Origin: Dictyostelium discoideum
Taxonomy: Eukaryota
Direction: 5' to 3'
Length of the DNA: 64,000 bases
Assembly: GCA_000004695.1 (NCBI GenBank)
Contig: CM000152.2
Coordinates: 2,720,001-2,784,000 of the forward strand
Of this stretch, positions 6,511-54,570 are shown piece by piece; position 1 is the first letter of the stretch, and each line of letters begins with the position of its first letter. A program made the translations under genes and the position numbers. Under the pieces are notes generated by a model that was not told where the DNA came from, did not search any database, and saw only the letters and a list, made by a program, of their open reading frames with translations.

Positions 6511-9071
6511 GTAATAATAAATCACCAATTATAAATTCACCAAATACAACATCACCAACAAATACCCAAATTGATTTTGATTCGCAATGGCATTATTCAT
6601 TAAAAGAAATGAAAAGATTTGAAATGGAAATATTATTACAAAGTATGTCAGGTGAATATAGGTGGTTTTTAGTTAGAGCCGAACCATATATTGAACCAAA
6701 TTTAGGTCATCCATCGTCACCATTACCTTCGATTATAAGTGCATGTGTTGATAATTGTGATATAATGACTGATGATAATAGTAGTGGTATTTTAATCAAT
6801 AATAATAATAATATTCAACAACCTTATTTAAATAATGATAATATATCAGGTGATAATGTAAATAATACACCAACATGTATTGATAACAATAATAATAATA
6901 TTGATGGTAGTAATAATAGTGTAAATTCAACAGGAACCGAACAATTGGATATTAAATGGATTGGTACATGTACAGATGTAAATGACCAAAAGACAGCACA
7001 AGATAGAATTGAGAATGCGGAGAAATCAAAAGCATTGTTTTTACAAACAATGTCACATGAAATGAGGACACCATTAGCAGGTATTATGGGTATTAATTCA
7101 TGGTTAAGTACATCATCACCACAATTGACTAGTGAACAATTGGATGGTTGCCATACTATTGATATGTGTGCCGAAGCATTGTTAGTATTAATTAATAATA
7201 TATTGGATCTAAGTAAATTGGAAGAGAATAAAATCATCCTAGAGGAAACTGAATTTTATCCAACTAAAATCGTTGAAGATTCAGTTGACATTTTATCATC
7301 ACAAGCTGAACAAAAGAAATTGGATATAATATTCCAATTGAAATATAATTGTTTATCTAAAGTAGTTGGTGACTTTTATAGAATTAGACAAGTTTTAACA
7401 AATTTAATTTCAAATTCTGTTAAATTTACACCAGCAAATGGTCAAATTATAGTTGGTTGTGAAATTTATCATGAAACAACACCATCAACTAGAAAACGTT
7501 CTTCATTGGATAGTATTGAAATTACAATACCTTGTAATCATAATAATAGTAATAATAGTAATAATAATCATAATCATAATAATAATAATAATAATAATAA
7601 TCATCTTAATTGCAGTGGTAGTTTTAATAATAATGGTTTTAATCATGGACATCATCATCATCATCACCACCACCATCATCACCACCATCATCATGATAAA
7701 CATTGTGATCAAAAAATAATTGTACCTGGCAAATATGGTAAATTATTATTTTGGGTAATTGATAATGGTATTGGTATACCGGAAGAAGGTAGAGAGAAAT
7801 TGTTTCAAACATTTTCCCAATATGATGCATCAACCACTCGAAAATATGGTGGTAGTGGTTTGGGTTTAGCAATTTCAAAAAGATTAACTCAATTACTTGG
7901 TGGTGATATTTGGTTTGAATCTCAAAAAGGTAAAGGTTCATCTTTCCATTTCTTAGTTGAAGTTTTCTTTCCAGATTATCCAACTATTTATAATCAACAA
8001 TTACAACAACAGCAACAACAACCAAATCTTCCTCATCAATTTAATATTGGTACATCAGCACCACAACCTATAGACAGTATATTAACATCATATAGTTCAA
8101 ACAATAGTAATAATAATATTAATAATAATAATATTACCACTTCTGTAATTTCACAATCACCCATAGTCGATAAATCAAATCTTTGTACATATATATTTTT
8201 ACTATCAACTAATCAAGTATTAGTAAATTCTTTATCACAATGGATAAATGAATGGATTGGAAATGCTACCAATAATAATAATAGTAATAATGATAACAAT
8301 AATAATAACACAACTTCTACAACTACCACAACTACAACTACAACAGCAACAATTAATACAAATATTAATCAACAAGTTAAAATATTATATGATATTGATT
8401 CAATTGAACAAATTTCAAATAGTGCAATACAAAGTGGAAAAAGATTAGATTTCCTTTTCCTTATTGAGGATACATTTTGGAATAATTATTCTGATAAAAT
8501 TTCAAATTCTCAAGAAATAATTGAATCTTTAATTAATCAAAATTATCAACAACAACAACAACAACAACAAGAACAAAGACAACAACATAATATTAAAAAT
8601 GTTATTTTAAGTTTTTCAAATTCAGCACAAATCTATGGAAATTCAATTATTTTGAAAAAACCTATAAAGTATTCCCCATTAAAAGATTGTATCTATACGA
8701 ATTTATTATACTTTAAATCAATTTATAGTGTTAATTCATTCGATGTAATAATTGCTACTCAAATGTCTTCTTCAGTTTCACCTTCTTCTTTATCATCCTC
8801 TCCTTCAATCCAAGGTTTAACAAATTCATCTTTAAGTATTAATAATATTAATATTAGTGGTAATAATAGTAACAACAATATCAATAATAATAATAATAAT
8901 AGTGGTAGTTCAACACCTAAAAAACTTAAAAAATCAAACTCTGATCAGTCAATACATTTCTCTCCAAGTTTAACTTCTTCATCATTACCAAGTCTAGATT
9001 TAAACAACAATAACAATATTAATAATAATAATAATATTAATAATAACAATAATATTAATAATAATAATAAC

Positions 9072-19604: not shown

Positions 19605-19772
19605 GGAGGTAAGTGGAGGTGCGTAATACGCAACGACCACAGCTACCACAAATTGGTCAATTGAATTCTCGTAATTGAGAATCATACACAAACCAAACCG
19701 GTGTGCAATGGTCTGAAATTCATGCAATTAATATGCCTTTGTGATCACATATTAATATTGACAGGTAAGTAT
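19605..19772 (-). ncRNA. U1 spliceosomal snRNA gene (copy 1; 3' end +/-10 nt)
   Basis: The reverse complement begins ATACTTACCTG (the 5' splice-site recognition sequence) and contains the Sm site AATTTGTGG followed by a terminal stem (GTGCGTAATACGCAC). Base-for-base identical to the + strand copy at 43788..43955. Confidence 0.8.
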
Positions 19773-25055: not shown

Positions 25056-25399
25056 AACATTTTTTTCAATGTAAAATTAAGTTGAAAATATATTTTTTCA
25101 ACTTAATTCCTATATCAATGAATTATTTTATCAGAATAATTTTGTTTCAAATTCTAAAATTAATTCTTTTAAACCTATATACGCATTTATTAAATCAATT
25201 TTTGGTACTGTCTTTTCTCTAATTTACTTACTATCACTGATTTAAAATGGTACGTAAAATATAATAATTTTAATTCGTCCAATAATTATTTTAATATTTC
25301 AAGTAAAATAATTTTTTGGTTTTGTAAGAATACATCAAAAGCTTCAATGATAGAAATTTAAAACGGGTATGAGTTATTTAACATGAAAAATATCGATTA

Positions 25400-25473
25400 G
25401 TTCGGATGGTGTAGTCGGTTATCACGAATCCTTAACACGGATTAGGTCGTGGGTTCGATTCCCGCTCTGAATA
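25400..25473 (+). tRNA. tRNA-Val (anticodon AAC)
   Basis: Cloverleaf by hand. Acceptor GTTCGGA/TCTGAAT (2 G-U pairs), D-arm GTG-TAGTCGGTTAT-CAC, anticodon stem AATCC/GGATT with loop TTAACAC (anticodon AAC), variable loop AGGTC, T-arm GTGGG-TTCGATT-CCCGC, discriminator A. Followed by a T-run at about 25485. Confidence 0.85.
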
Positions 25474-25514
25474 CAAACTAATACTTTTTCCAAAGACAAA
25501 TTTTCATAGTCAAA

Positions 25515-25525
25515 AGTTCGATTCC
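25515..25525 (+). promoter_or_regulatory. ex-B box (extra B-box, AGTTCGATTCC) 42 bp downstream of tRNA-Val
   Basis: A second copy of the B-box consensus GGTTCGANTCC outside the tRNA body at the distance described for Dictyostelium tRNA genes. No TRE-type insertion is present nearby. Confidence 0.55.
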
Positions 25526-25920
25526 AGAAGAATGCAGTCTTTGAAAAAAAAAAAAGTAATTTAGCAATTTATTTAAAATTTTAATACCTTTTAAAATCAT
25601 TTAATTTATATAATTTAGTTTGTTTTATTATTATATTTCATCTTATAAAAACATAAAACAAAAAAATTATTGAATTTGATGGTTAAATACTAATTAGTTA
25701 ATATTTTTTTTTTTTTTTTTTTTAATAAAATGTTGGTGAAATTTTAATACACAAATCCAATAAAAAAAAAAAATTTAATAAAAAACAGCAAAGATCAAAA
25801 AAAAAATAAACAAAATAAAAAATATAAATGATAGGAATGAATTTAAAGATTTATTTTATTAAAAACATTTAGATCAATAATTATTAATTATTTTCTAAGA
25901 ATATCAGCCTAAAGAGTTAT

Positions 25921-27384
25921 TTAAAATAAAAGGCCAAGAGAAATTAAAACTGCAGTTAAACAAAATGATGAAATAATTCTTAAACTTGAGTTTGGATGAT
26001 CACCATCAGCTGAAGTATCATCACCAGTTGCAGATCCAGTAGCTGAACCAGTTGAAGAAGTAGTAGCACCAGTTGAAGAAGTAGCAGAACCAGTAGTGGT
26101 TGGAACTGGTTTATCAACTTCACCAGATTGATAGTTTGAAGCACCTAATGTTGGATCCCATTCAACAGAGTTTGGTCTTTCACCTTCAAATGAATATGTG
26201 ACGAATAAGGCATCTTTGTTTGAAATCATAGTTTTTAAGTCATTTGTGAAGCTACCACTTTCAGATGTTTTACCTACATTTGAGTGAACCTTGGAGGTTT
26301 GTGTACCAGCAGCTGAATTTACTTTTGCAGTTCCAACCCAATCATATGTAATTGAGAAATTTTTACCTATATCAACTGTAATTGATGGTGCACTTTTATC
26401 AGTGGCCTTGAATTTAACTGAAGCAACGAATGAAAGGAGGGCAAGTTTTGATTTTTTATCAGATGGACCAGTTGTTAAGCCACAGAATGGGATGTTTAAA
26501 TTGGTTGAGGATTTGGCAGAAAATGGTGAACCTCCAAGGAGACCTCCAATGATATTACCAATGGTACTTGTTACTGAAGTGGCTACTGTTGTAACACCAT
26601 TCACAATATCACAAAAAGTTGGATTCTTATTTACATTTTTATCATAGTAATTGTAAATACCAATATCGATTTTAGTTTGTGAAGCACCAATTGGATTCCC
26701 ATTAACACCAACAGATTGTTCTGGTACAGTGAAGTCCATAGTGAATAAACCATTATCACTCTTAGATGAAATATAGTGTACATTAAATTCCTCACCCTTG
26801 GCATTTTTTAATTTTTTAGTTGTTGAAGTTGTTTTGTAACTATAATATTTAAGGTCAATTTTACCTACAACAGTATCTTGTCCTTGTTGGAATCCTTCAA
26901 CACCATTTTCTTCAGTATATTCAACAATATAGGCTGGCATAAATCCTGTGGCAATTGCAGATACACCAAAATCAATATTCAATTGGGATAAATCTAAATT
27001 GGCATGACCCTCTAAATAAACAAATGAAACTGATGGTGGGACAGAATATAATGTTTGGTATCTGAAAATTGATGAATCAGCTTGTGCTGAAGCTGCACTA
27101 TTTGAAAGAGAACCACCGATTGATGCACCTTGTAAATAAAATAGGTATGGGCTAAGGTTGATACCTGTTCCTTCAATTGTAACATCTGGTATTTTAACTT
27201 CTTTTGAAATATATTTACGATAGACATCCTTGGATCTGGTAATGTTAGAGAATACCACTTAAAAAATACAGGTAAATATTTAATTGTTAAATTTTTAAAA
27301 AGTTAAATAATACATACATTGATCAATAGTTCCAGCAAATGCCGAACCAATTAATAAAAAACATAAAAATAAAGCTTTATTCAT
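25921..27384 (-). CDS. Secreted, probably GPI-anchored cell-surface protein, paralog A. Exons 27318..27384, 25921..27257
   Basis: Exon 1 MNKALFLCFLLIGSAFAGTIDQ (signal peptide), GTATGT donor, AAG acceptor. Mature region with conserved blocks shared with paralog B (FRYQT, NFG.SAIATGFMP..I.EYTEENG..GFQ, SQTK.D.GIYNYYD, GPS.K.SKLALLSFVA.VK, YDW.G.AKVN, EWDPTLGASNY), a Ser/Thr/Gly-rich stalk and a C-terminal hydrophobic tail SSFCLTAVLISLGLLF*. Confidence 0.65.
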
Positions 27385-27602: not shown

Positions 27603-28031
27603 ATGAAAGTATGAAATTAAAAAAAAAAAAAAAAATAAATAAAAAAAAAGTGGAAAAAATTTTAAAATCGGATTAATTCTTGGGTGCGAAAAAAAAAAAA
27701 TTAAAATTTAAAAAACATTTCCCAGTCAAAACAAAAAAAAAAAAAAAACAAAAAAACAAAAAAAAAAAAAAAAAAAAAAAAATTATACTTATTTAATTAA
27801 AAAAATTTGAATGGAAATAATTTGTTAAAATAATGGTATAATAGTTTGTGGATAACAAATGTGCAATACCAATTGGTAGAAGAAGATTATTATCACCGGA
27901 TCTCTTGAGCTCCAGTTTCAATCATACTATGTTCAACTTAAAGAAAAATTAGCTCACGCTCCAATTACAGTCAAAGAAGATTTAGATATTTTAGAAAAAC
28001 TTCTTGTAACAAGAGCCGCAAAAAAAAAATA
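27603..28031 (+). CDS. Candidate small 2-exon gene (51 aa). Exon 1 ATGAAA 27603..27608, intron GTATGA...TAG, exon 2 27890..28031. Speculative
   Basis: The GC-richer island 27890..28031 is an open frame KKIIITGSLELQFQSYYVQLKEKLAHAPITVKEDLDILEKLLVTRAAKKK* immediately preceded by an AG acceptor (ccaattggtag|). A possible upstream ATGAAA|gtatga donor would supply the start. No homolog recognised. Confidence 0.25.
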
Positions 28032-28184
28032 AAAGTAAAAAAAAAAAAATAAAAAAAAAGAGGCGAGGAATCAACCAGCTCGGCATAAAATTACTTTTCA
28101 CCACTTTAATGCTGAAATTTTTACATTCGACCACCCTTATTAGTTTATTACCCTTTTTGTTTATTGTTTTTAAATGGCAAACAT

Positions 28185-28246
<62 letters not shown>

Positions 28247-28540
28247 TATTATTAAACTAGTTGAGTCAAACAAATTAATTTGATGATTATATTCTTTTTT
28301 TTAGACTATTATTCTATTTACATGCCTTGGAATCTAATAAAATGACATGTCATTCTAAAAAATTAAAATAATCTAAACGAATCTTTCGAACCGTTTTTTT
28401 TTTGAAAAAGATATTTATTTTTCAAATTTCCAAATTTTGCCATTCTTTTTTTTATAAATATAAAAAGAAAATATTTTTAAATTTTTTTTTAAAAATATTT
28501 TTAAAAAAACAAAAACGAAATTGATAATTATAAAGTAATA

Positions 28541-29485
28541 ATGAAATTAATAATTCAACTAATAATTTTAATTTTAACAATTAAACAATGTTTGGCATTT
28601 GAAAAATTATTTGTAAATTTAGTACCATACCAAACATCAAGTTGTTCAAAAGGTGGTGCCCAATCAAGTGGTATTGGTTTTAGTGGAATTATTGATACAT
28701 GTTTAACAATTGATGCTTTAAGTAATTTTAAATTTACTGTGGGTTCAAATAAAATGATTACTTGGTCAACTTATAAAGCAAAGAATGTTTCAGAAGTAAC
28801 TTGTACAACTGATAATCAAGTTTCATCAACAACTACTCCAATAGGTTCATGTGTTGCTAGTAAATCATTTGATATTGATTCTGATCTTATGCCAGTTAAT
28901 CCATTCTTTTATGAAGTTTCAGTATCTGTTACTCCATTAATTCAAGATAATTCAGTTGTTAATATGTTTATGAGTGGTGAAAGTTGTACTTCAGATAATG
29001 CTTTAATTGTTGAATATATTACCGTTGGTACATTTGTATTATCTCAACAAGATAGTGGTATATTTGAATATATTTGTTCGAATGGTGTACCTGAAATTGT
29101 TGCTTGTGATTCACATAAAAAAAATTGTAAAGCTCCAACCAATGCTGCATTGGACTGTTATAATATTTCCCCATTCTTTAATGGTTCATCATTTGAATTA
29201 CCATGTTCTTCTGGTTCACAACAAGGTTCAGAAAGTTGTGCACCTTTACCTTTTTCAGGTTCTAGTGCTGGTGCTAGTTCGGGTGCAGTATCAAGTGGCT
29301 CAGGTTTTTCATCTGGTTTTGTTTCACCATCAATGAAAACATCTGGTTCAACAGGTGCATATACCAATTATATTGCTAATAGTGATACAACTACTGGAAA
29401 TAGTTATCAAGAATATAATAATTTAAATTCAATGAATCCAATTGTTTTGTCCTATTTAACAACTTATTGTTCAAGCAGTAATTAA
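28541..29485 (+). CDS. Secreted Cys-rich protein with C-terminal Ser/Gly-rich region (hypothetical)
   Basis: 314-codon ORF with signal peptide MKLIIQLIILILTIKQCLAF, multiple Cys, and Ser/Gly/Thr-rich low-complexity C-terminal third. No stop-free extension found; family not recognised. Confidence 0.55.
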   Translation: MKLIIQLIILILTIKQCLAFEKLFVNLVPYQTSSCSKGGAQSSGIGFSGIIDTCLTIDALSNFKFTVGSNKMITWSTYKAKNVSEVTCTTDNQVSSTTTPIGSCVASKSFDIDSDLMPVNPFFYEVSVSVTPLIQDNSVVNMFMSGESCTSDNALIVEYITVGTFVLSQQDSGIFEYICSNGVPEIVACDSHKKNCKAPTNAALDCYNISPFFNGSSFELPCSSGSQQGSESCAPLPFSGSSAGASSGAVSSGSGFSSGFVSPSMKTSGSTGAYTNYIANSDTTTGNSYQEYNNLNSMNPIVLSYLTTYCSSSN

Positions 29486-29693
29486 TTTAAAAATAAAATA
29501 TTAATTTTTTTTGTTAATTAATTAATAATTTGATTGTAAAATTTATTTAGTTATTTAAATTTTTTTATTTTTAAAAATATAATTTAAATGATTTATAATT
29601 GATTGTTTTGTATATATATATAATATATTATTAGCTGTCCAATCTACTGGTACAAATGTTCAAGAAAGGTGTGAAAAATAAAAAAATTAAAAT

Positions 29694-29734
<41 letters not shown>

Positions 29735-29886
29735 CATTAAAATTAAAATTAATTTGAATTAATTAAATTAAATTATTGCTGGGTAAACCTTAACAGATTT
29801 AAACAATAAAATCAATTAATTAATGTTAATACTTTTATATAGATGGTCTTGATTCACTAAAATCACCAAAATCATCTTTATCATTA

Positions 29887-29948
29887 ACTAGGCCTAGTTA
29901 CTGATGATTTTTCAAAACCACTCATTGTGTTGAAAAATCATCAAACCC
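29887..29948. repeat. Adjacent perfect palindrome TAACTAGGCCTAGTTA plus a 14-bp inverted repeat TGATGATTTTTCAA..(18)..TTGAAAAATCATCA
   Basis: Read directly from the sequence; GC-richer than the flanks. Confidence 0.7.
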
Positions 29949-30030
29949 ATTATTATTTAATTAACCGAAGGTATATCTTTTACTTAGATTCTTTTTTATT
30001 CTTTATAAAATCGTTTGACTTTTTTTTTTT

Positions 30031-30118
30031 CTGTGCCAAAATTACCATATTAATATGGTAATTTTGGCAGAAATAAGTCCCATGCCAAAATTAATATGGT
30101 AATTTTGGCACGGGACAG
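30031..30118. repeat. Tandemly duplicated palindromic unit forming a nested hairpin
   Basis: A 36-bp perfect palindrome tgccaaaattaccatat|taatatggtaattttggca (30034..30069), a 13-bp spacer, then a 28-bp truncated copy tgccaaaattaatatggtaattttggca (30083..30110). The whole is flanked by inverted ctgt...acag. Confidence 0.8.
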
Positions 30119-30435
30119 TCGCATTAATAAATTATAAAATTTATAAATCAAAAGAATCAACACCTTCTATATTTGATATGATTTTTATTGACTTCTGAAA
30201 AAAAAATTCTCCTTGTACCGGTAATCTTTTAAGTTCAATACAATCAATCATCCAAACTTGTACAAAGTAAACCTTGTGTACTTTGGGCATTGTTCTTAAA
30301 AAATAAAATAGAATATAATTAAATAAATAAAAAAAAGTAAAATTTTAAAAAACAGATAATAGATAAGGCAGTCTAATTTATTTTTATTACTTTTTTAAAA
30401 TATGGTTTGTTATTAATAATAAAATCTTTTAAATA

Positions 30436-31803
30436 TTAATTTAAAATTAATAAACTTGATAAAACAATTAAAACTATTAAAAACAATGATGAAGTAGTTT
30501 TGAAAGCACTATTTGGATTTTCTTCTGGCATTGGACCATCATCAGTATAACCTGGTTCATAATTTGATGCACCTAAAGTTGGATCCCATTCAATTGAGCT
30601 TGGTCTAACACCATCAAATGAGTAAGTAATAAATAATGATTGCATATCACTGAGGAACTTTGAAATACCACCTAAACCAAATTTACTACCTTTTGAACTA
30701 TCAGTAACATTTGAGAAAACTTTGGAATTTTTAGCACCATTTCCAGTGTTAACTTTAGCCTTTCCAATCCAATCGTAAGTAACTGAAAAATTTTTACCAA
30801 CATCAAAAGTAACTGATGCTTCACCTTTATCATTAACCTTTAATTTAACGGCTGCAACAAATGAAAGGAGTGCAAGTTTTGATTGTTTTTTAGATGGTCC
30901 TGTTGTTCCATCACAAAGCACTGGGATATTAATGTTACTTGGTTCAACTGTTTTAGTTTCAATTGGTTCAGGTTCAACTGTATCCGATTCAATAAATGGG
31001 AATGGTAAGTCAGTAAGTATTGGTGGGATAGTTACTGGTGGGAGAGTAATTGGTGGGAGAGTAATTGGTGGGAGTGTTATTGGTGGGAGTGTTAAATCTG
31101 GAATTGATGGCATAGATGTTGCCCAATCTGGGATTTTGATATCACAGAAATCCAATTCATTTTTGTTAATTTTTTCATCATAGTAATTGTAAATACCGAC
31201 ATCAACTTTAGTTTGTGAAGCACTAATTGCGTTTCCATCAATACCAACTGAACGCTCTGGAATTGTAAAGTTCATTTGGAATAAACCATTTTTACTGGTT
31301 GATGTAACTTTATAAACTTTAAATGTTTTTCCATCTGATCCGGTCATATCTGCTGATTGTGAGGTGGTTTTGTAGGTATATTTACTGAGATCAACCATAC
31401 CAACAACAGAGTCACCGTCAAGTTGGAATCCATCAATACCATTTTCTTCAGTGTATTCAATGATAAAAGTTGGCATAAAACCTGTGGCAATAGCTGAAAT
31501 ACCAAAGTTTAATTGTAGCTTTTTAATATCTAAATTGATATTACCTTCAGCATAGGAAAAGGTTAAACTTGGGAAAACGTATGGCATAGTTTGATATCTA
31601 AACAAAGAAGTATCAATTTTACCAGTTGTATTGGTTCCACTTAATGTACCACCAACAGATGCACCTACTAAAAAGAACTGGTATGGTACCAAGCCTGCTT
31701 CACCACCAAAGGAAAATTGTTTATATTCACGGAATACATCCTTCTTTCTGTTAATATTTTTAAAACTATCTAATAAATTTCAAAACAAATTATTTTAATT
31801 AAT

Positions 31804-43787: not shown

Positions 43788-43955
43788 ATACTTACCTGTC
43801 AATATTAATATGTGATCACAAAGGCATATTAATTGCATGAATTTCAGACCATTGCACACCGGTTTGGTTTGTGTATGATTCTCAATTACGAGAATTCAAT
43901 TGACCAATTTGTGGTAGCTGTGGTCGTTGCGTATTACGCACCTCCACTTACCTCC
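43788..43955 (+). ncRNA. U1 spliceosomal snRNA gene (copy 2; 3' end +/-10 nt)
   Basis: Starts ATACTTACCTG; Sm site AATTTGTGG at 43906..43914; terminal stem-loop. Identical to the reverse complement of 19605..19772, including about 25 bp of flank on each side. It lies 228 bp downstream of the rpp40 stop. Confidence 0.8.
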
Positions 43956-48290: not shown

Positions 48291-48960
48291 TTCTCTACCA
48301 TTAGATTGGTTAGGATACATATCATCATATTACTTCATTTTCTTTTTTCTATATTATTTAAAATTAAAATTAGAATATTTATTTATTTATTTATTGTTTT
48401 ATTTACTTATTTATTTATTTTTTTAATTTAATTTTTTTTACCTTTTTACCTTTTTTCTCTTTAATTCTACCCTAAATCTTTAATTTTCTTTGTTTTGAAA
48501 TAATACTATTTCACTTTATTTATTTTAATACTTTAGTTTGGAATGAAAAAAAAAAAAAAAAGATCAATTTATACTCTGAAAATTTTTTATTATTTCCGAT
48601 AAAAAATTATTTAGATTTGCCCTAATTAGGAATTTTGCTTTTTTTTGATTGATCAATCAAAAAAATTTCTAAAATGGCAATTAATTGATAATAAAAATGG
48701 TTAAATCGGGACAACTAATTTAATTTAATTTATTTTTTATATATTTTTTTATTGTTTTTATTCTCCCCTCAAATAATGTTTTTAATTATAAAAAAAAAAA
48801 AAAAAAAAAAAATGAATGTTCCACCAATAAAAAAGAAATATAAAATCGATCGCAAATAATTCCATATGCAAACAGTTATTTTTTTAAACTTTTTTTTTTT
48901 TTATTTTCCTAATTTTTTTTTTTAAGTTTGTAAATTTTACAAATCAATCAAAAATGAAGC

Positions 48961-49280: not shown

Positions 49281-51836
49281 TTAATCAAAAACAGAATCTT
49301 CAGCTATTTTATTAGTATTATTATCAATATTAATAGTATTAATATTATTTGATTGATTATTTTGATTAATTATATCTTCAAGATACCAATTTTTATCTTT
49401 ATCAAATCTTAATAAAGTTGAATGATATTTTAAAAGTGAAATACGATGACCAACACTAATGATGGTTATTCCTAATTCTTTAGCAACAGAATAAACACGT
49501 TCTTCAAGTGATTGAGGAATTGAACTTGTAGATTCATCCATTAAAGCGAATTTAGGTTTATGATAGATTAATCTAATAATTGCAATTAATTGTTGTTCAC
49601 CTGGTGATAATTGATTTAACCAATTATGAGTGAGATCATTAACTTGAGCACTCTTTTTAATGAATCTTTCACGATCTAATAAATAATCGATATCAAATCT
49701 TTGGAATAATTCTCTCATTATTGATTTTGGAATTCTTTTTTGTTTTTTACTAAATGGATATAGAATTTGTTCTTCTAAAGTACCAAATATTAAATATGGT
49801 TGTTGTGGTAAGAAAAACATATCTTCATTCTCTGGTCTATTGATACTACCTTTAAAAAATGGCCATAATCCATTAATAATTCTAATTAATGATGATTTAC
49901 CTGAACCACTTGGTCCCATTATTAATAAATTATTTCCTTTTTTAATACATATTGAAATTTCTTTTTATTATTATTATTATTTTTAAATTATAAAAAAATG
50001 ATTAGTAATTCTCTTTTCTTAATTTTATTATTTATTTTTTTTTTTAAAAAAAAGTGGATTATTATATAATTACTTTCATATAATTGAGTTCCTTTTGGAG
50101 TAAAATAGGTAACATCGTCCAATGTAATACTTTCACCTTCATTTAAAGATATATGTCTAAAATCAGTATTAATAGAAGTATCTCTATTATTAATAATTAG
50201 AGAATTGGGTAATGATTTGGTTTTATCTTTTTCATTTAATTTAGTGATCTCTATATCTAATGAAGTATCACCCATAACTTTTTTACAAACTTCAATCATT
50301 GTTGAAATACGTGATATATAACCAGATAAATCTGAGATACTTTGAGAAACATTAATATATTGACTAAATCCACTTGCTAACATAATACAATTATATGATT
50401 GCTTTTTTTTTTTTTTTTTTTTTTATTTAATTTAATGATTATTAATAATTTTCTTTTATTTTTTTTATTTAATCTTAATATTACTACTTACAACTGTTAC
50501 TTGGGCAGGTTCTAATGCAGCTTTAGAACTTAAAAAGAATACTGGAATTGATATTATAAAATAATTTATAAGTGGACTAAAAAATGTAAACATATCAGAT
50601 GTTGCTAAAAAAAAAATAAAAATTAATAAATAAATAAAAAATAAAAAATAATAATTAATAATTATTATTTATTTATCACAATAATAGTTAAATAAAAAAC
50701 TTACTATTTAAACCAAATTGCCAAAAAATTACTCTCTTTTTATTTTTTAATAAAGCTTCAAACTGTTGTTTTGCTTGTTCTTCCTCAACTAATAATTCTT
50801 CATTTTTTATATTTTTATTTGATCTTTTTAATAAAGCACTTCTTTTATTTTTTGAATTTTTATTTTTTCTATTAATAATCTTTGTTTTATCAGTGTATTC
50901 ATCAGATTCTTCACCATCATCGTGATGATGATGATAATGATGATCATCATCATAATAATCCAAATTATCAACACTAGTGGTACTTTTTTTTTGTTGCTTT
51001 TCTTTTGATAAATTATAGAGTGCAATTGATTCAGAGAAATTTCTAATTCTTTGATGAAGGTATCTAAAATCACCTTCTAATTTATCTTGAAGATAATTAA
51101 TTGATACCATTGGTGACATTACTAATTTATTGATGAAATAACCTAAAAAGAAATAACCATAAACAATCAACGGGGCATACCAATCAATAGTAGTATAACA
51201 TAAATATGTATAATAAACCACTACCATTGGACCAGTGATACATTGAGATACAATTGATGATAATAGTGTTGTAAAATTATCAATATCAGATGTTATACGT
51301 TGATCTGGATTATCAATTCTATCATCAAATGCTAATATCTTGTAGAATAATGATTTTTTGAAATAAACATTTTGAATGTATAAACATAAAGTTTTCCTCC
51401 AATTCCATGCCATTATACTAACGATGAATTTAATGATTGCATCAAATAATGCACTACCACCAATTGCAAAACAACCTTTAATCAATGATGATACGAATAA
51501 AAATTTATCTCCACTTGTTAATGATCCATAAATGTTTGATAATAAAATACCTGTGAATTTTGAAATATAAGTTTGTGAAACTCCACTACCAAATAATAAT
51601 AAAAATAATAATAATGGAATCACTGGTTTTTCATATAATATTATCACAATTTTTATAAATCTCTTAAATAATGCCCAATCAAATTTATTTTCTTTAATTT
51701 TCTTTAACATTTCATCAGTTTGATTAAAATTAAGTTTTGATTTTACTTCTTCATCTGAACTACTACCACTACTACTGCTACTACTGCTACTACTATTTAG
51801 TGTTTCTGTTATATTATTAACATTATTTTTTTTCAT
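49281..51836 (-). CDS. ABC transporter D-family (peroxisomal ALDP-like) half-transporter, tandem copy A. Exons 50705..51836, 50492..50604, 50074..50405, 49281..49936
   Basis: TMD with ABCD motifs (AWNWRKTLCLYIQNVYFKKSLFYKI..FDDRIDNPDQRITSDIDNF). NBD LLIMGPSGSGKSSLIRIINGLWP...MFFLPQQPYL...LSPGEQQLIAIIRLIYHKPKFALMDESTSSI. GTAAGT/GTAATT donors. Has a His-rich linker DDDHHYHHHHDDGEESDEY. Confidence 0.8.
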
Positions 51837-52101
51837 ATTTTTATAAAAATTTAATTTTTAACCATACAAGGTATAAAAAAAAAAAAAAAAGAAAAATGAT
51901 ATTATGCTATAGATAGTTTTGTTTGTGGGTTATTTCTATTTTTAATTTGTTTCGAAAAAAAAATAAAAAATAAAAATTAAAAAATAAAAAAAGTAAAAAA
52001 ATAAAAATGAATTGTTTTATTTTGAAAATAAATGAAAAATTAAAAAAAAATAAAATTAAAAAATAAATATCTTAAATCGGAAAGATTTTGTTTTTGATTG
52101 A

Positions 52102-52826
52102 TCAATCAAAAACAGAATCCTCAGCTATTTTATTTGTATTATTATTATTATTATTATTAATATTATTTGATTGATTGTTTTGATTAATTATATCTTCAAG
52201 GTACCAATTTTTATCTTTATCAAATCTTAATAAAGTTGAATGATATTTTAAAAGTGAAATACGATGACCAACACTAATGATTGTTATTCCTAATTCTTTT
52301 GCAACATAGTAAACACGTTCTTCAAGTGATTGAGGAATTGAACTTGTAGATTCATCCATTAAAGCGAATTTAGGTTTATGATAGATTAATCTAATAATTG
52401 CAATTAATTGTTGTTCACCTGGTGATAATTGATTTAACCAATTATGAGTGAGATCATTAACTTGAGCACTCTTTTTAATGAATCTTTCACGATCTAATAA
52501 ATAATCAATTTCAAATCTTTGGAATAATTCTCTCATTATTGATTTTGGAATTCTTTTTTGTTTTTTACTAAATGGATATAGAATTTGTTCTTCTAAAGTA
52601 CCAAATATTAAATATGGTTGTTGTGGTAAGAAAAACATATCACCATTCTCTGGTCTATCAATACTACCTTTAAAAAATGGCCATAATCCATTAATAATTC
52701 TAATTAATGATGATTTACCTGAACCACTTGGTCCCATTATTAATAAATTATTTCCTCTTTTAACATTAATTGAAATTTCTATAAAATGGTTTTTAAAAAA
52801 AAAAAAAGTAAATTAATTAGTTATTA

Positions 52827-52867
<41 letters not shown>

Positions 52868-54570
52868 ATTACTAGAATATAATTGATTTCCTTTTGGTGT
52901 AAAATAAGTAACATCATCTAATGTAATACTATCACCATTATTTAAAGATATATTACCAGATGAGCCAGTATTGATAATGGCATCATTATTGTGTGTTTGT
53001 GCTACCTTTTCATTTAATTTGGTGATATCAGCATCTAAAGAAACATCTTCCATAATTTTTTTACATACTTCAATCATTGATGAAATACGTGAAATATAAC
53101 CAGATAAATCTGAAATACTTTGAGAAACATTAATATATTGACTAAATCCACTGGCCAACATAATACAATTATATGATTGCTAATTGATTAAAAAAAAAAA
53201 ATTAATTAACTTTTTTAAATAATTAAGATATATATTATTAATATAACTACTTACAACTGTAACATCACCAGGTTGTAATACAGATTTATTATTTAAAAAG
53301 AATACTGGTATTGCAATAATAAAATAATTTGCTATTGGACTTAAGTATGTAAATAAATCAGATGTTGCTTTTTTAAAAAATAATAAATAGGTTAATATAA
53401 AAAAAAAAAGAAATTTATCTTTATAATTATAATAATAAAAAAAAATAAAAAAAGAAACTTACTATTTAAACCAAGTTGCCAAAAAATTACTCTTTTTTTA
53501 TTTTTTAATAAAGCTTCAAATTGAATTTTAGCTTGTTCTTCTTCAACTAATAATTCTTCTTTTTGATCATTTGAATCACCTGATAATTTATCAATAAAGT
53601 CATTAATTTTCTTTGATGTTGAATTTTTATTTTTATAATATTGAGAACCTTTATTCTTTTTTCTATTTATAATTGTTGTTGATTCATCACAAGATTGATC
53701 AGAATCATCAGATTCATATCCATGATCATAATCATTATTGTCAAATCTCTTTTCAGGATGTTGCTTTTCTTTTGATAAACTATAGAGTGCAATTGATTCA
53801 GAGAAATTTCTAATTCTTTGATGAAGTGACCTAAAATCACCTTCTAATTTATCTTGAAGATAATTAATTGATACCATTGGTGACATTACTAATTTATTAA
53901 TGAGATAACCTAAAAAGAAGAAACCATAAACAATCAATGGAGCATACCAATCGATTGTAGTATAACATAAATATGTATAATAAACCACTACCATTGGACC
54001 AGTGATACATTGAGATACAATTGACGCTAATAGTGTTGTGAAATTATCAATATCAGATGTTATACGTTGATCTGGATTATCAATTCTATCATCAAATGCT
54101 AATATCTTGTAGAATAATGATTTTTTGAAATAAACATTTTGAATGTATAAACATAAAGTTTTCCTCCAATTCCATGCCATTATACTAACGATGAAATTAA
54201 TGATTGCAGCCAACAATGCACTACCACCAATTGCAAAACCTGCTTTTAAAACTGATGATAAGAAAAAAACTTTATCACCACTTGTAAATGATGCATAAAT
54301 ATCTGCTAATAAAATACCTGTGAACTTTGAAACATAAGTTTGTGCAAATCCATTACCAAATAATATTAAAAATAAAGTTAATGGAATCACAGGTTTAGCA
54401 TATAAAATTTTTATAATATTTATAAATCTCTTAAATAATGCCCAATCAAATTTATTTTCTTTAATTTTTTTTAATCTTTCATCATTTTGATTATAATTAT
54501 TTTTTATTTTAATTTCTTCATCTGTATTATTAATATTATTATTATTATTTTTTACATTTGTAGTTTTCAT
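52102..54570 (-). CDS. ABC transporter D-family half-transporter, tandem copy B. Exons 53463..54570 (alternative upstream ATG at 54597), 53255..53367, 52873..53179, 52102..52754
   Basis: Same exon structure and phases as copy A. The NBD exon is near-identical at nucleotide level to copy A, while the N-terminus and linker (DYDHGYESDDSDQSCDES) diverge. Confidence 0.8.

Follow-up and report, generated by a model that had tools for sequence, protein, structure and literature searches.

A cluster of perfect palindromes next to DDB_G0279955 in Dictyostelium discoideum AX4, probably left by template switching and slippage at nested inverted repeats

The subject of this analysis is a cluster of palindromes and hairpins on chromosome 3 of Dictyostelium discoideum AX4, in a stretch of 64,000 nucleotides (hereafter the window; all positions are counted from its first letter unless another assembly is named). 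The cluster lies in an island at 29843-30293 with a guanine plus cytosine (GC) content of 27.7%, against 11.5% in the left flank (29486-29842) and 11.3% in the right flank (30294-30435), so that an initial annotation made from the sequence was right to call the region less AT-rich. DDB_G0279955 (28541-29485, plus strand; P0012 in our protein set) encodes a CfaA_B_C (PF11912) protein. The protein encoded at 30436-31692 on the minus strand is 100% identical to AX4 DDB_G0279957. The two genes are convergent, and the palindromes sit between both 3' ends. A tandem paralogue of DDB_G0279957 lies at 25921-27258. The cluster had been placed between the paralogues, but the island adjoins DDB_G0279955 and DDB_G0279957 and does not border both paralogues directly. 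A literature search found no paper naming any of the three genes by its identifier. The left edge of the region is formed by a run of 38 T residues (29697-29734, plus strand). The run falls within the intron annotated for DDB_G0279955, and it is about here that Logan contigs covering this gene's first exon end. The region is not purely intergenic in the reference annotation, because a terminal exon of DDB_G0279955 at 29843-29904 covers the first palindrome.

That first structure is a 16-bp perfect palindrome, TAACTAGGCCTAGTTA, at 29885-29900, which is read in the annotated exon as the codons LTRPSY. It is followed by a hairpin with 14-bp perfect arms, TGATGATTTTTCAA (29902-29915) and TTGAAAAATCATCA (29930-29943), the first three bases of which are the annotated stop codon TGA; its loop is 14 nt long and not 18 nt as first described. 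Two 9-bp direct repeats, AAAATCATC, at 29868-29876 and 29934-29942, flank 66 bp in which the 16-bp palindrome and the greater part of the 14-bp hairpin lie. Further downstream are two related units. Unit A is a 36-bp perfect palindrome (30034-30069), and unit B (30077-30116) reads GTCCCA-TGCCAAAATTAATATGGTAATTTTGGCA-CGGGAC, with a 28-mer core at 30083-30110 that is separated from the 36-mer by a 13-bp spacer. The core has an 11-bp stem and a 6-nt loop, and its stem lengthens to 17 bp with one mismatch when the flanking bases are included (GTCCCa.../...cGGGAC, 30077-30116). Across the pair run outer inverted-repeat arms of 22 bp, perfectly complementary (30033-30054 and 30090-30111), which enclose a 35-bp core. 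The palindromes, the 14-bp arms and the 28-mer lie where they had been reported. The inverted CTGT...ACAG said to bracket the pair is also present, but it is a mere 4-mer and is not kept in another strain. Directly 3' of the palindromes is an AATAAA (30126-30131, plus strand), and further right a segment that we call A.B (30245-30281) lies between the two halves of an imperfect inverted repeat of 13 bp, TTTTAAGTTCAAT (30227-30239) and ATTGTTCTTAAAA (30289-30301).

The palindromes are real and far beyond chance. Perfect stems of at least 11 bp number four in the island, against a mean of 0.027 and a maximum of one in 1000 dinucleotide-preserving shuffles, and 5 of the 11 perfect hairpins of the window (stem of at least 8 bp, at least three G or C per arm) fall within a 240-bp stretch. 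In silico folding of the AX4 DNA, which had been proposed as a check, gave z-scores of -6.6 and -11.3. A second D. discoideum assembly, L001, is identical to AX4 here, and the 28-mer with its flanks was recovered in independent Logan contigs from three runs; thus, the palindromes are not an assembly artefact. The Logan short-read contigs (L009-L011, L014-L020) terminate at homopolymer runs or inside the palindromes (30073/30081), which marks the palindromes as breakpoints for short-read (de Bruijn) assembly.

Corresponding loci were fetched via the flanking proteins from L001 (AX4-like), L006, L008 and the more distant L007, all of which carry DDB_G0279955, and from L003 (D. cf. discoideum), D. 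citrinum, D. firmibasis and D. dimigraforme. Six of the assemblies compared make up the D. discoideum group (D. discoideum or D. cf. discoideum). The tandem paralogues, that is, DDB_G0279957 and its partner, were found in all species compared. A block at about 27755-30293, comprising DDB_G0279955 and the island, is missing from L003, D. citrinum, D. firmibasis and D. dimigraforme, and homology with L003 restarts exactly at 30293, where the island ends on the right. L007 has DDB_G0279955 and shares only 30198-30293 of the island, so all palindromes are missing there. In the other species, the corresponding spacers are without comparable hairpins. Judged from these assemblies, the palindromes are not a conserved structural feature. 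Nor can they have caused the paralogue duplication, because D. citrinum, D. firmibasis and D. dimigraforme have it without the island or DDB_G0279955; the duplication is much the older of the two. Of the earlier proposal of a cruciform-forming recombination hotspot involved in that duplication, what survives is the structural hypervariability of the site among strains, with inversions, a fold-back duplication and deletions.

The presence of DDB_G0279955 itself varies: D. discoideum strains and D. cf. discoideum FIY have the gene, and D. cf. discoideum FIZ, D. citrinum, D. firmibasis and D. dimigraforme do not have it at this locus. In a collection of 5.8 billion proteins, no homologue was found at E<=1e-10 beyond its own 90%-identity cluster, which consists of D. 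discoideum and D. cf. discoideum proteins. The spacer also varies in other ways. L008 carries about 180 extra bp with a long (TTG)n run at 7050-7230, 3' of exon 1 of DDB_G0279955 in the spacer or 'intron', that are not in AX4. L003 has unrelated GC-richer patches of its own in the same spacer (7640-7800 and 8040-8100, minus-strand view), one of them with a 9-bp-arm hairpin, CCAATTCAT-C-ATGAATTGG; these patches were unmatched in every other locus fetched.

Within the D. discoideum group the site differs by inversion, fold-back and deletion in L006, L008 and L007, in answer to the polymorphism check that had been suggested. L006 retains a single copy of AAAATCATC, with the 66 bp between the repeats gone, and the 16-bp palindrome, which is the same in L008, is missing with them. 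In place of units A and B, L006 has one quasi-palindromic unit, CTG-TGCCAAAATTA-CCATATTAATTT-CAGCAG-CCATATTAATTT-TGGCA-TGGGAC. L008 has two units. In its unit A the arms measure 17 bp and the loop, TAATTTCAGA, 10 nt; its unit B matches the L006 unit in reverse complement, set between GTCCCA…TGGGGC. Relative to L008, the loop of AX4 unit A is without 8 bp (AATTTCAG) between AAT microhomologies; relative to L008 and L006, AX4 unit B is without CTGCTG plus AAATTAATATGG, that is, 18 bp between the 12-bp direct repeats AAATTAATATGG. The motif TTTCAG is common to L006, the unit A loop of L008 and unit B of L008, and is absent from both AX4 units; since it is shared in this way, the 8-bp and 18-bp deletions are derived in AX4. 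The comparison indicates that these deletions made the 36-mer perfect and the 28-mer compact, and that the perfect palindromes of AX4 are derived states. The 28-mer had been described as a deletion derivative of the 36-mer, a relationship that has to be replaced, as the two go back to sister copies of a single unit that were longer and less perfect.

Changes of orientation are also seen. L006 aligns to L008 with a score of 64 when the inter-arm segment is inverted, against 45 when it is left unflipped, and the alignment runs through TGGGACTT; on this comparison L006 is a flip isomer with a later deletion. AX4 and L007 agree in the orientation of segment A.B, which L006 has inverted. L008 carries it as a fold-back of two perfect 31-bp arms (L008 7767-7797 and 7827-7857) around a 29-nt loop, which folds as DNA at -39.8 kcal/mol (z -14), where AX4 and L007 have a single arm only. 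Other structures are weakened among the strains. In L008 one arm of the 14-bp hairpin has lost 1 nt and the opposite arm has a substitution, which breaks the pairing and leaves the hairpin without significant folding (z -1.8 in L008 versus -6.6 in AX4; -6.9 versus -17.7 kcal/mol as RNA), and the structure in L006 folds with a z-score of -1.1.

Three patterns recur: perfect arms where relatives have one copy (the 31-bp arms of L008), spacers between arms that are flipped among close relatives (L006 versus L008, and A.B in AX4 and L007 versus L006 and L008), and deletions at hairpins bounded by direct repeats. These are known signatures of template switching and slipped mispairing, which is why we take the cluster to be a mutational by-product. 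In this interpretation, which we consider probable, the cluster consists of neutral nested inverted repeats that arose by template switching and slippage in young, D. discoideum-specific DNA. Template switching, or fold-back copying, at replication would generate an inverted copy of neighbouring sequence; the same process would equalise both arms and could flip the spacer between them. Slippage at short direct repeats flanking or within a hairpin would delete loops and spacers. The outcome in the AX4 lineage would be unusually perfect palindromes, with the remodelling still ongoing. The structures are absent from the relatives, which speaks against a function, but they are not the chance structure that the initial annotation expected of an unconserved sequence, since a mutational process appears to have made them. 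The DNA of the island is non-coding, or marginally coding at most, and weakly constrained. Its high GC content most likely reflects a recent origin, with decay to the roughly 11% of the flanks being incomplete.

Both processes have precedents. Palindrome-stimulated deletion between short direct repeats, by slipped mispairing, is established in the Escherichia coli and yeast literature. The deletions seen here resemble it: those of 66, 18 and 8 bp are bounded by direct repeats of 9, 12 and 3 bp, and each removes a hairpin or a loop. They differ in being natural variation in an amoeba, and two of them raise the perfection of a palindrome instead of destroying it. The other events resemble short-range template-switch (quasipalindrome-associated, Ripley model) mutation, in which arms become identical, the spacer is inverted, new perfect stems are made from adjacent sequence, and differences cluster between close relatives. 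They differ from it in that several nested events fall within about 300 bp, with units of 50-90 bp and not a few bases, and in that the data are polymorphisms among wild strains of the D. discoideum group. Published work describes homogenised arms and an inverted spacer after template switching at short inverted repeats (PMC8604942) and perfect stems made by template switching (PMC8794818), with signatures of template switching and slipped mispairing in bacteria, yeast and primates (PMC8604942, PMC7954356, PMC8794818, PMC7202029).

Several points weigh against this interpretation. What the assemblies show are end states, from which the mechanism and part of the polarity are deduced. Polarity follows from parsimony on only four distinct haplotypes, with no outgroup that has the palindromic part, and every non-AX4 haplotype comes from a single assembly. 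A young, strain-specific function may be compatible with the lack of conservation. Template switching by itself does not account for a GC content of 27.7% over 450 bp. A dispersed element or an expressed hairpin RNA may still be involved, the copy search having covered the window and the fetched loci. Finally, if the terminal exon of DDB_G0279955 is real, the island is partly coding and its remainder is 3' untranslated region (UTR), where hairpins could matter. We nevertheless favour template switching and slippage, and presume that the structures are without selected function; their practical effects would be local instability and breaks in short-read assemblies, for which the site can be flagged. 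The cluster is an instance of a known mutational phenomenon, with no evidence of a new gene, RNA or mobile element. It offers a natural example, with intermediates kept in different wild strains, of palindromes that were apparently built, flipped and perfected by replication errors in a eukaryotic genome.

The initial annotation had also considered a footprint of a transposon or of a miniature inverted-repeat transposable element (MITE). A remnant of a MITE or a fold-back element, or a fragment brought in with DDB_G0279955, would account for an island that is GC-richer than its surroundings and rich in inverted repeats, in a lineage-specific block that is present or absent in close relatives. 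It would also suit the 66-bp indel with 9-bp direct repeats at its flanks, and small non-autonomous DNA elements do exist in D. discoideum, for example thug-S (PMC4894637). However, neither the island nor any of the hairpin units or indels is delimited by terminal inverted repeats paired with a target-site duplication. Terminal inverted repeats were found neither at the ends of the island nor at those of the 66-bp indel or of an AX4-specific segment of about 130 bp, the inverted repeats present being internal hairpins, and there is no target-site duplication around the hairpin units. Only the 66-bp indel has flanking direct repeats (the 9-bp AAAATCATC), and it fits slippage better, lacking terminal inverted repeats; because it encloses a hairpin between direct repeats, it represents a classic slippage setting. 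Searches of the island with blastn and tblastx against the window and the fetched loci returned only self matches and A/T low complexity, so that no second copy is present there, and a transposase-like coding signal is missing. When contigs of the metagenome, GTDB and viral collections were scanned, and plasmids and phages searched by BLAST, there were 0 matches, as expected for collections that hold no dictyostelids. Moreover, the differences among strains are inversions and internal deletions and not clean insertion or excision. The island is like MITEs and fold-back elements, including thug-S, in being short and non-coding with inverted repeats dominant, and unlike them in having no such boundaries and no further copy in the DNA compared. 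On balance, we regard a mobile-element origin as unlikely.

Other sources for the island were tried and rejected. A decayed version of a nearby gene was discounted, as the island shows neither nucleotide nor translated (tblastx) similarity to the genes around it or to the rest of the window. The paralogous position, downstream of the other paralogue, is occupied by a transfer RNA gene, tRNA-Val, and has no similarity to the island. A retroposed copy ending in poly(A) or in the T38 run is not supported either: what flanks it as 'duplications' is A-rich sequence of low complexity, and the ends of the indels in L003 and L007 are at odds with such an origin.

The folding of the units raises the question of whether they are expressed as RNA. 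As RNA, the 94 nt at 30027-30120 fold at -45.9 kcal/mol on the plus strand and -49.5 kcal/mol on the minus strand (about -0.49 kcal/mol/nt, z -10 to -12), well past the threshold of -0.2 kcal/mol/nt used for microRNA (miRNA) hairpins of D. discoideum (PMC6161686), so that the segment has the folding energy of a miRNA precursor on either strand. The island could accordingly contain a young, strain-specific hairpin-RNA locus (a proto-miRNA or a source of hairpin small interfering RNA), alone or in the 3' UTR of DDB_G0279955, with its stems processed by the Dicer-like DrnB together with RbdB. Known D. discoideum miRNA loci are mostly intergenic, and their primary transcripts start after long T runs; here the T38 run lies 300 nt upstream on the plus strand, and an AATAAA follows the palindromes on the same strand. 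Template switching is a documented route to new RNA hairpins (PMC8794818). Nevertheless, the base after the T run is C and not the G of the start-site motif, and the stems are just 16-20 bp, near-perfect and equal on both strands, as DNA palindromes would give. The arm sequences were found neither in the miRNA supplements of Liao et al. 2018 (PMC6161686) and Meier et al. 2016 (PMC4894637) nor by full-text search, and the positions that Liao et al. quote for chromosome-3 miRNA loci are 3.66 and 3.74 Mb, whereas the present locus is near 2.83 Mb in the related assembly L001. Rfam gave no family at gathering score over the island; at E<=10 it returned only weak matches to generic miRNA-hairpin models, on both strands. 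The structure is not maintained in L006 and is absent from L007 and other species, and no compensatory change keeps pairs between strains, the strain changes breaking them. The locus is thus similar to the DrnB/RbdB-dependent miRNA hairpins of Dictyostelium (PMC6161686, PMC4894637) in its intergenic position, strong folding energy and poor conservation across species, and differs in being outside the published loci checked and in its shorter, perfect stems, equal on both strands. The structured non-coding RNA that had been listed as a candidate in the initial annotation finds no support in these comparisons, and a hairpin-RNA locus seems to us distinctly improbable. More speculative still would be to take the strains as stages in the birth of a hairpin-RNA gene, from the 11-bp quasi-palindrome of L006 through the inverted duplication of L008 to the near-perfect 18-20-bp stems of AX4, downstream of a lineage-specific gene and possibly within its 3' UTR, with DrnB-dependent small RNAs in AX4; we see this as a long shot.

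Further RNA candidates were discarded. The tRNA scan of the island found nothing. A box C/D small nucleolar RNA is not supported, as UGAUGA is present but without a D box and Rfam E-values exceed 3. A DUSE-like motif of the kind found in non-coding RNA promoters, ACCCATTA, at about 29946 has one mismatch and is mutated in L008 and L006 (compared by eye), and a perfect ACCCACAA on the minus strand of L008 is directed away from the island. As a transcript proxy, the Logan contigs proved uninformative on transcription, as they are colinear with the genome and break off at homopolymers or at the palindromes.

The annotated terminal exon deserves separate consideration. In the AX4 reference model of DDB_G0279955 it has 62 nt (29843-29904, plus strand) and ends …NGLDSLKSPKSSLSLTRPSY*. 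Joining 28541-29477 to it, across an intron of 365 nt (29478-29842, GTAATT…ATATAG), gives exactly the P0012 protein of 332 aa with its end …YCSSNGLDSLKSPKSSLSLTRPSY. If the exon is real, the AATAAA at 30126 would close a 3' UTR of about 240 nt, and the island could be a terminal exon plus structured 3' UTR, with hairpins that have a part in 3'-end formation, in stability or in termination where the two genes converge. The GT…AG sites are plausible, and the frame is open in L008 (with an in-frame 3-bp insertion) and in L006 (with the in-frame 66-bp deletion). Yet newer NCBI models in four other strains omit the exon and give proteins of 314 or 319 aa that stop at a conserved …TTYCSSSN*; L007 carries the gene without the exon sequence; and the 314-aa product is encoded by several Logan contigs and the 332-aa product by none. 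The hairpins, besides, vary or are missing among strains. A GC-rich island in an AT-rich genome can draw a spurious exon prediction, and the terminal exon may be such a predictor artefact, which would be a sufficient explanation. A role of the hairpins in a 3' UTR is therefore, in our judgement, very doubtful, and the case is a warning that the AX4 reference model may hold a spurious terminal exon.

An open reading frame of 49 codons (ORF49) is present on the minus strand at 30141-30290, as first reported, but it is an AX4-specific open frame and not a gene. An exact look-up returned no gene on record, and a HMMER search against 1.84e9 proteins gave two spurious matches to repeat proteins only. 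The start codon ATG is ATT in L007. The N-terminal half of the frame is segment A.B read backwards; L006 and L008 have this half inverted or rearranged and therefore cannot contain ORF49.

The window also contains a tRNA-Val gene and two U1 small nuclear RNA genes. The U1 genes, at 19612-19772 (minus strand) and 43788-43948 (plus strand), are inverted and 24 kb apart, with 256-nt arms that are 97% complementary. The tRNA-Val(AAC) gene at 25400-25474 is found in all fetched strains of the D. discoideum group (L001, L003, L006-L008), and no tRNA was found at the fetched loci of D. citrinum, D. firmibasis and D. dimigraforme. About 45 nt downstream of it is a second B-box-like copy, AGTTCGATTCCAG (25516-25528), the 'external B box' typical for Dictyostelium tRNA genes. 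A lone 14-bp perfect hairpin with a 6-nt loop, AATTAAGTTGAAAA, lies at 25075-25108, about 300 bp upstream of tRNA-Val. Elsewhere in the window, 26-bp perfect palindromes (TTTTTTTGATTGA|TCAATCAAAAAAA and a variant) are found at 48640-48665 and 52089-52114, one just upstream of each copy of a tandem duplication of about 2.8 kb (49312-51291 and 52130-54058, 90-96% identical).

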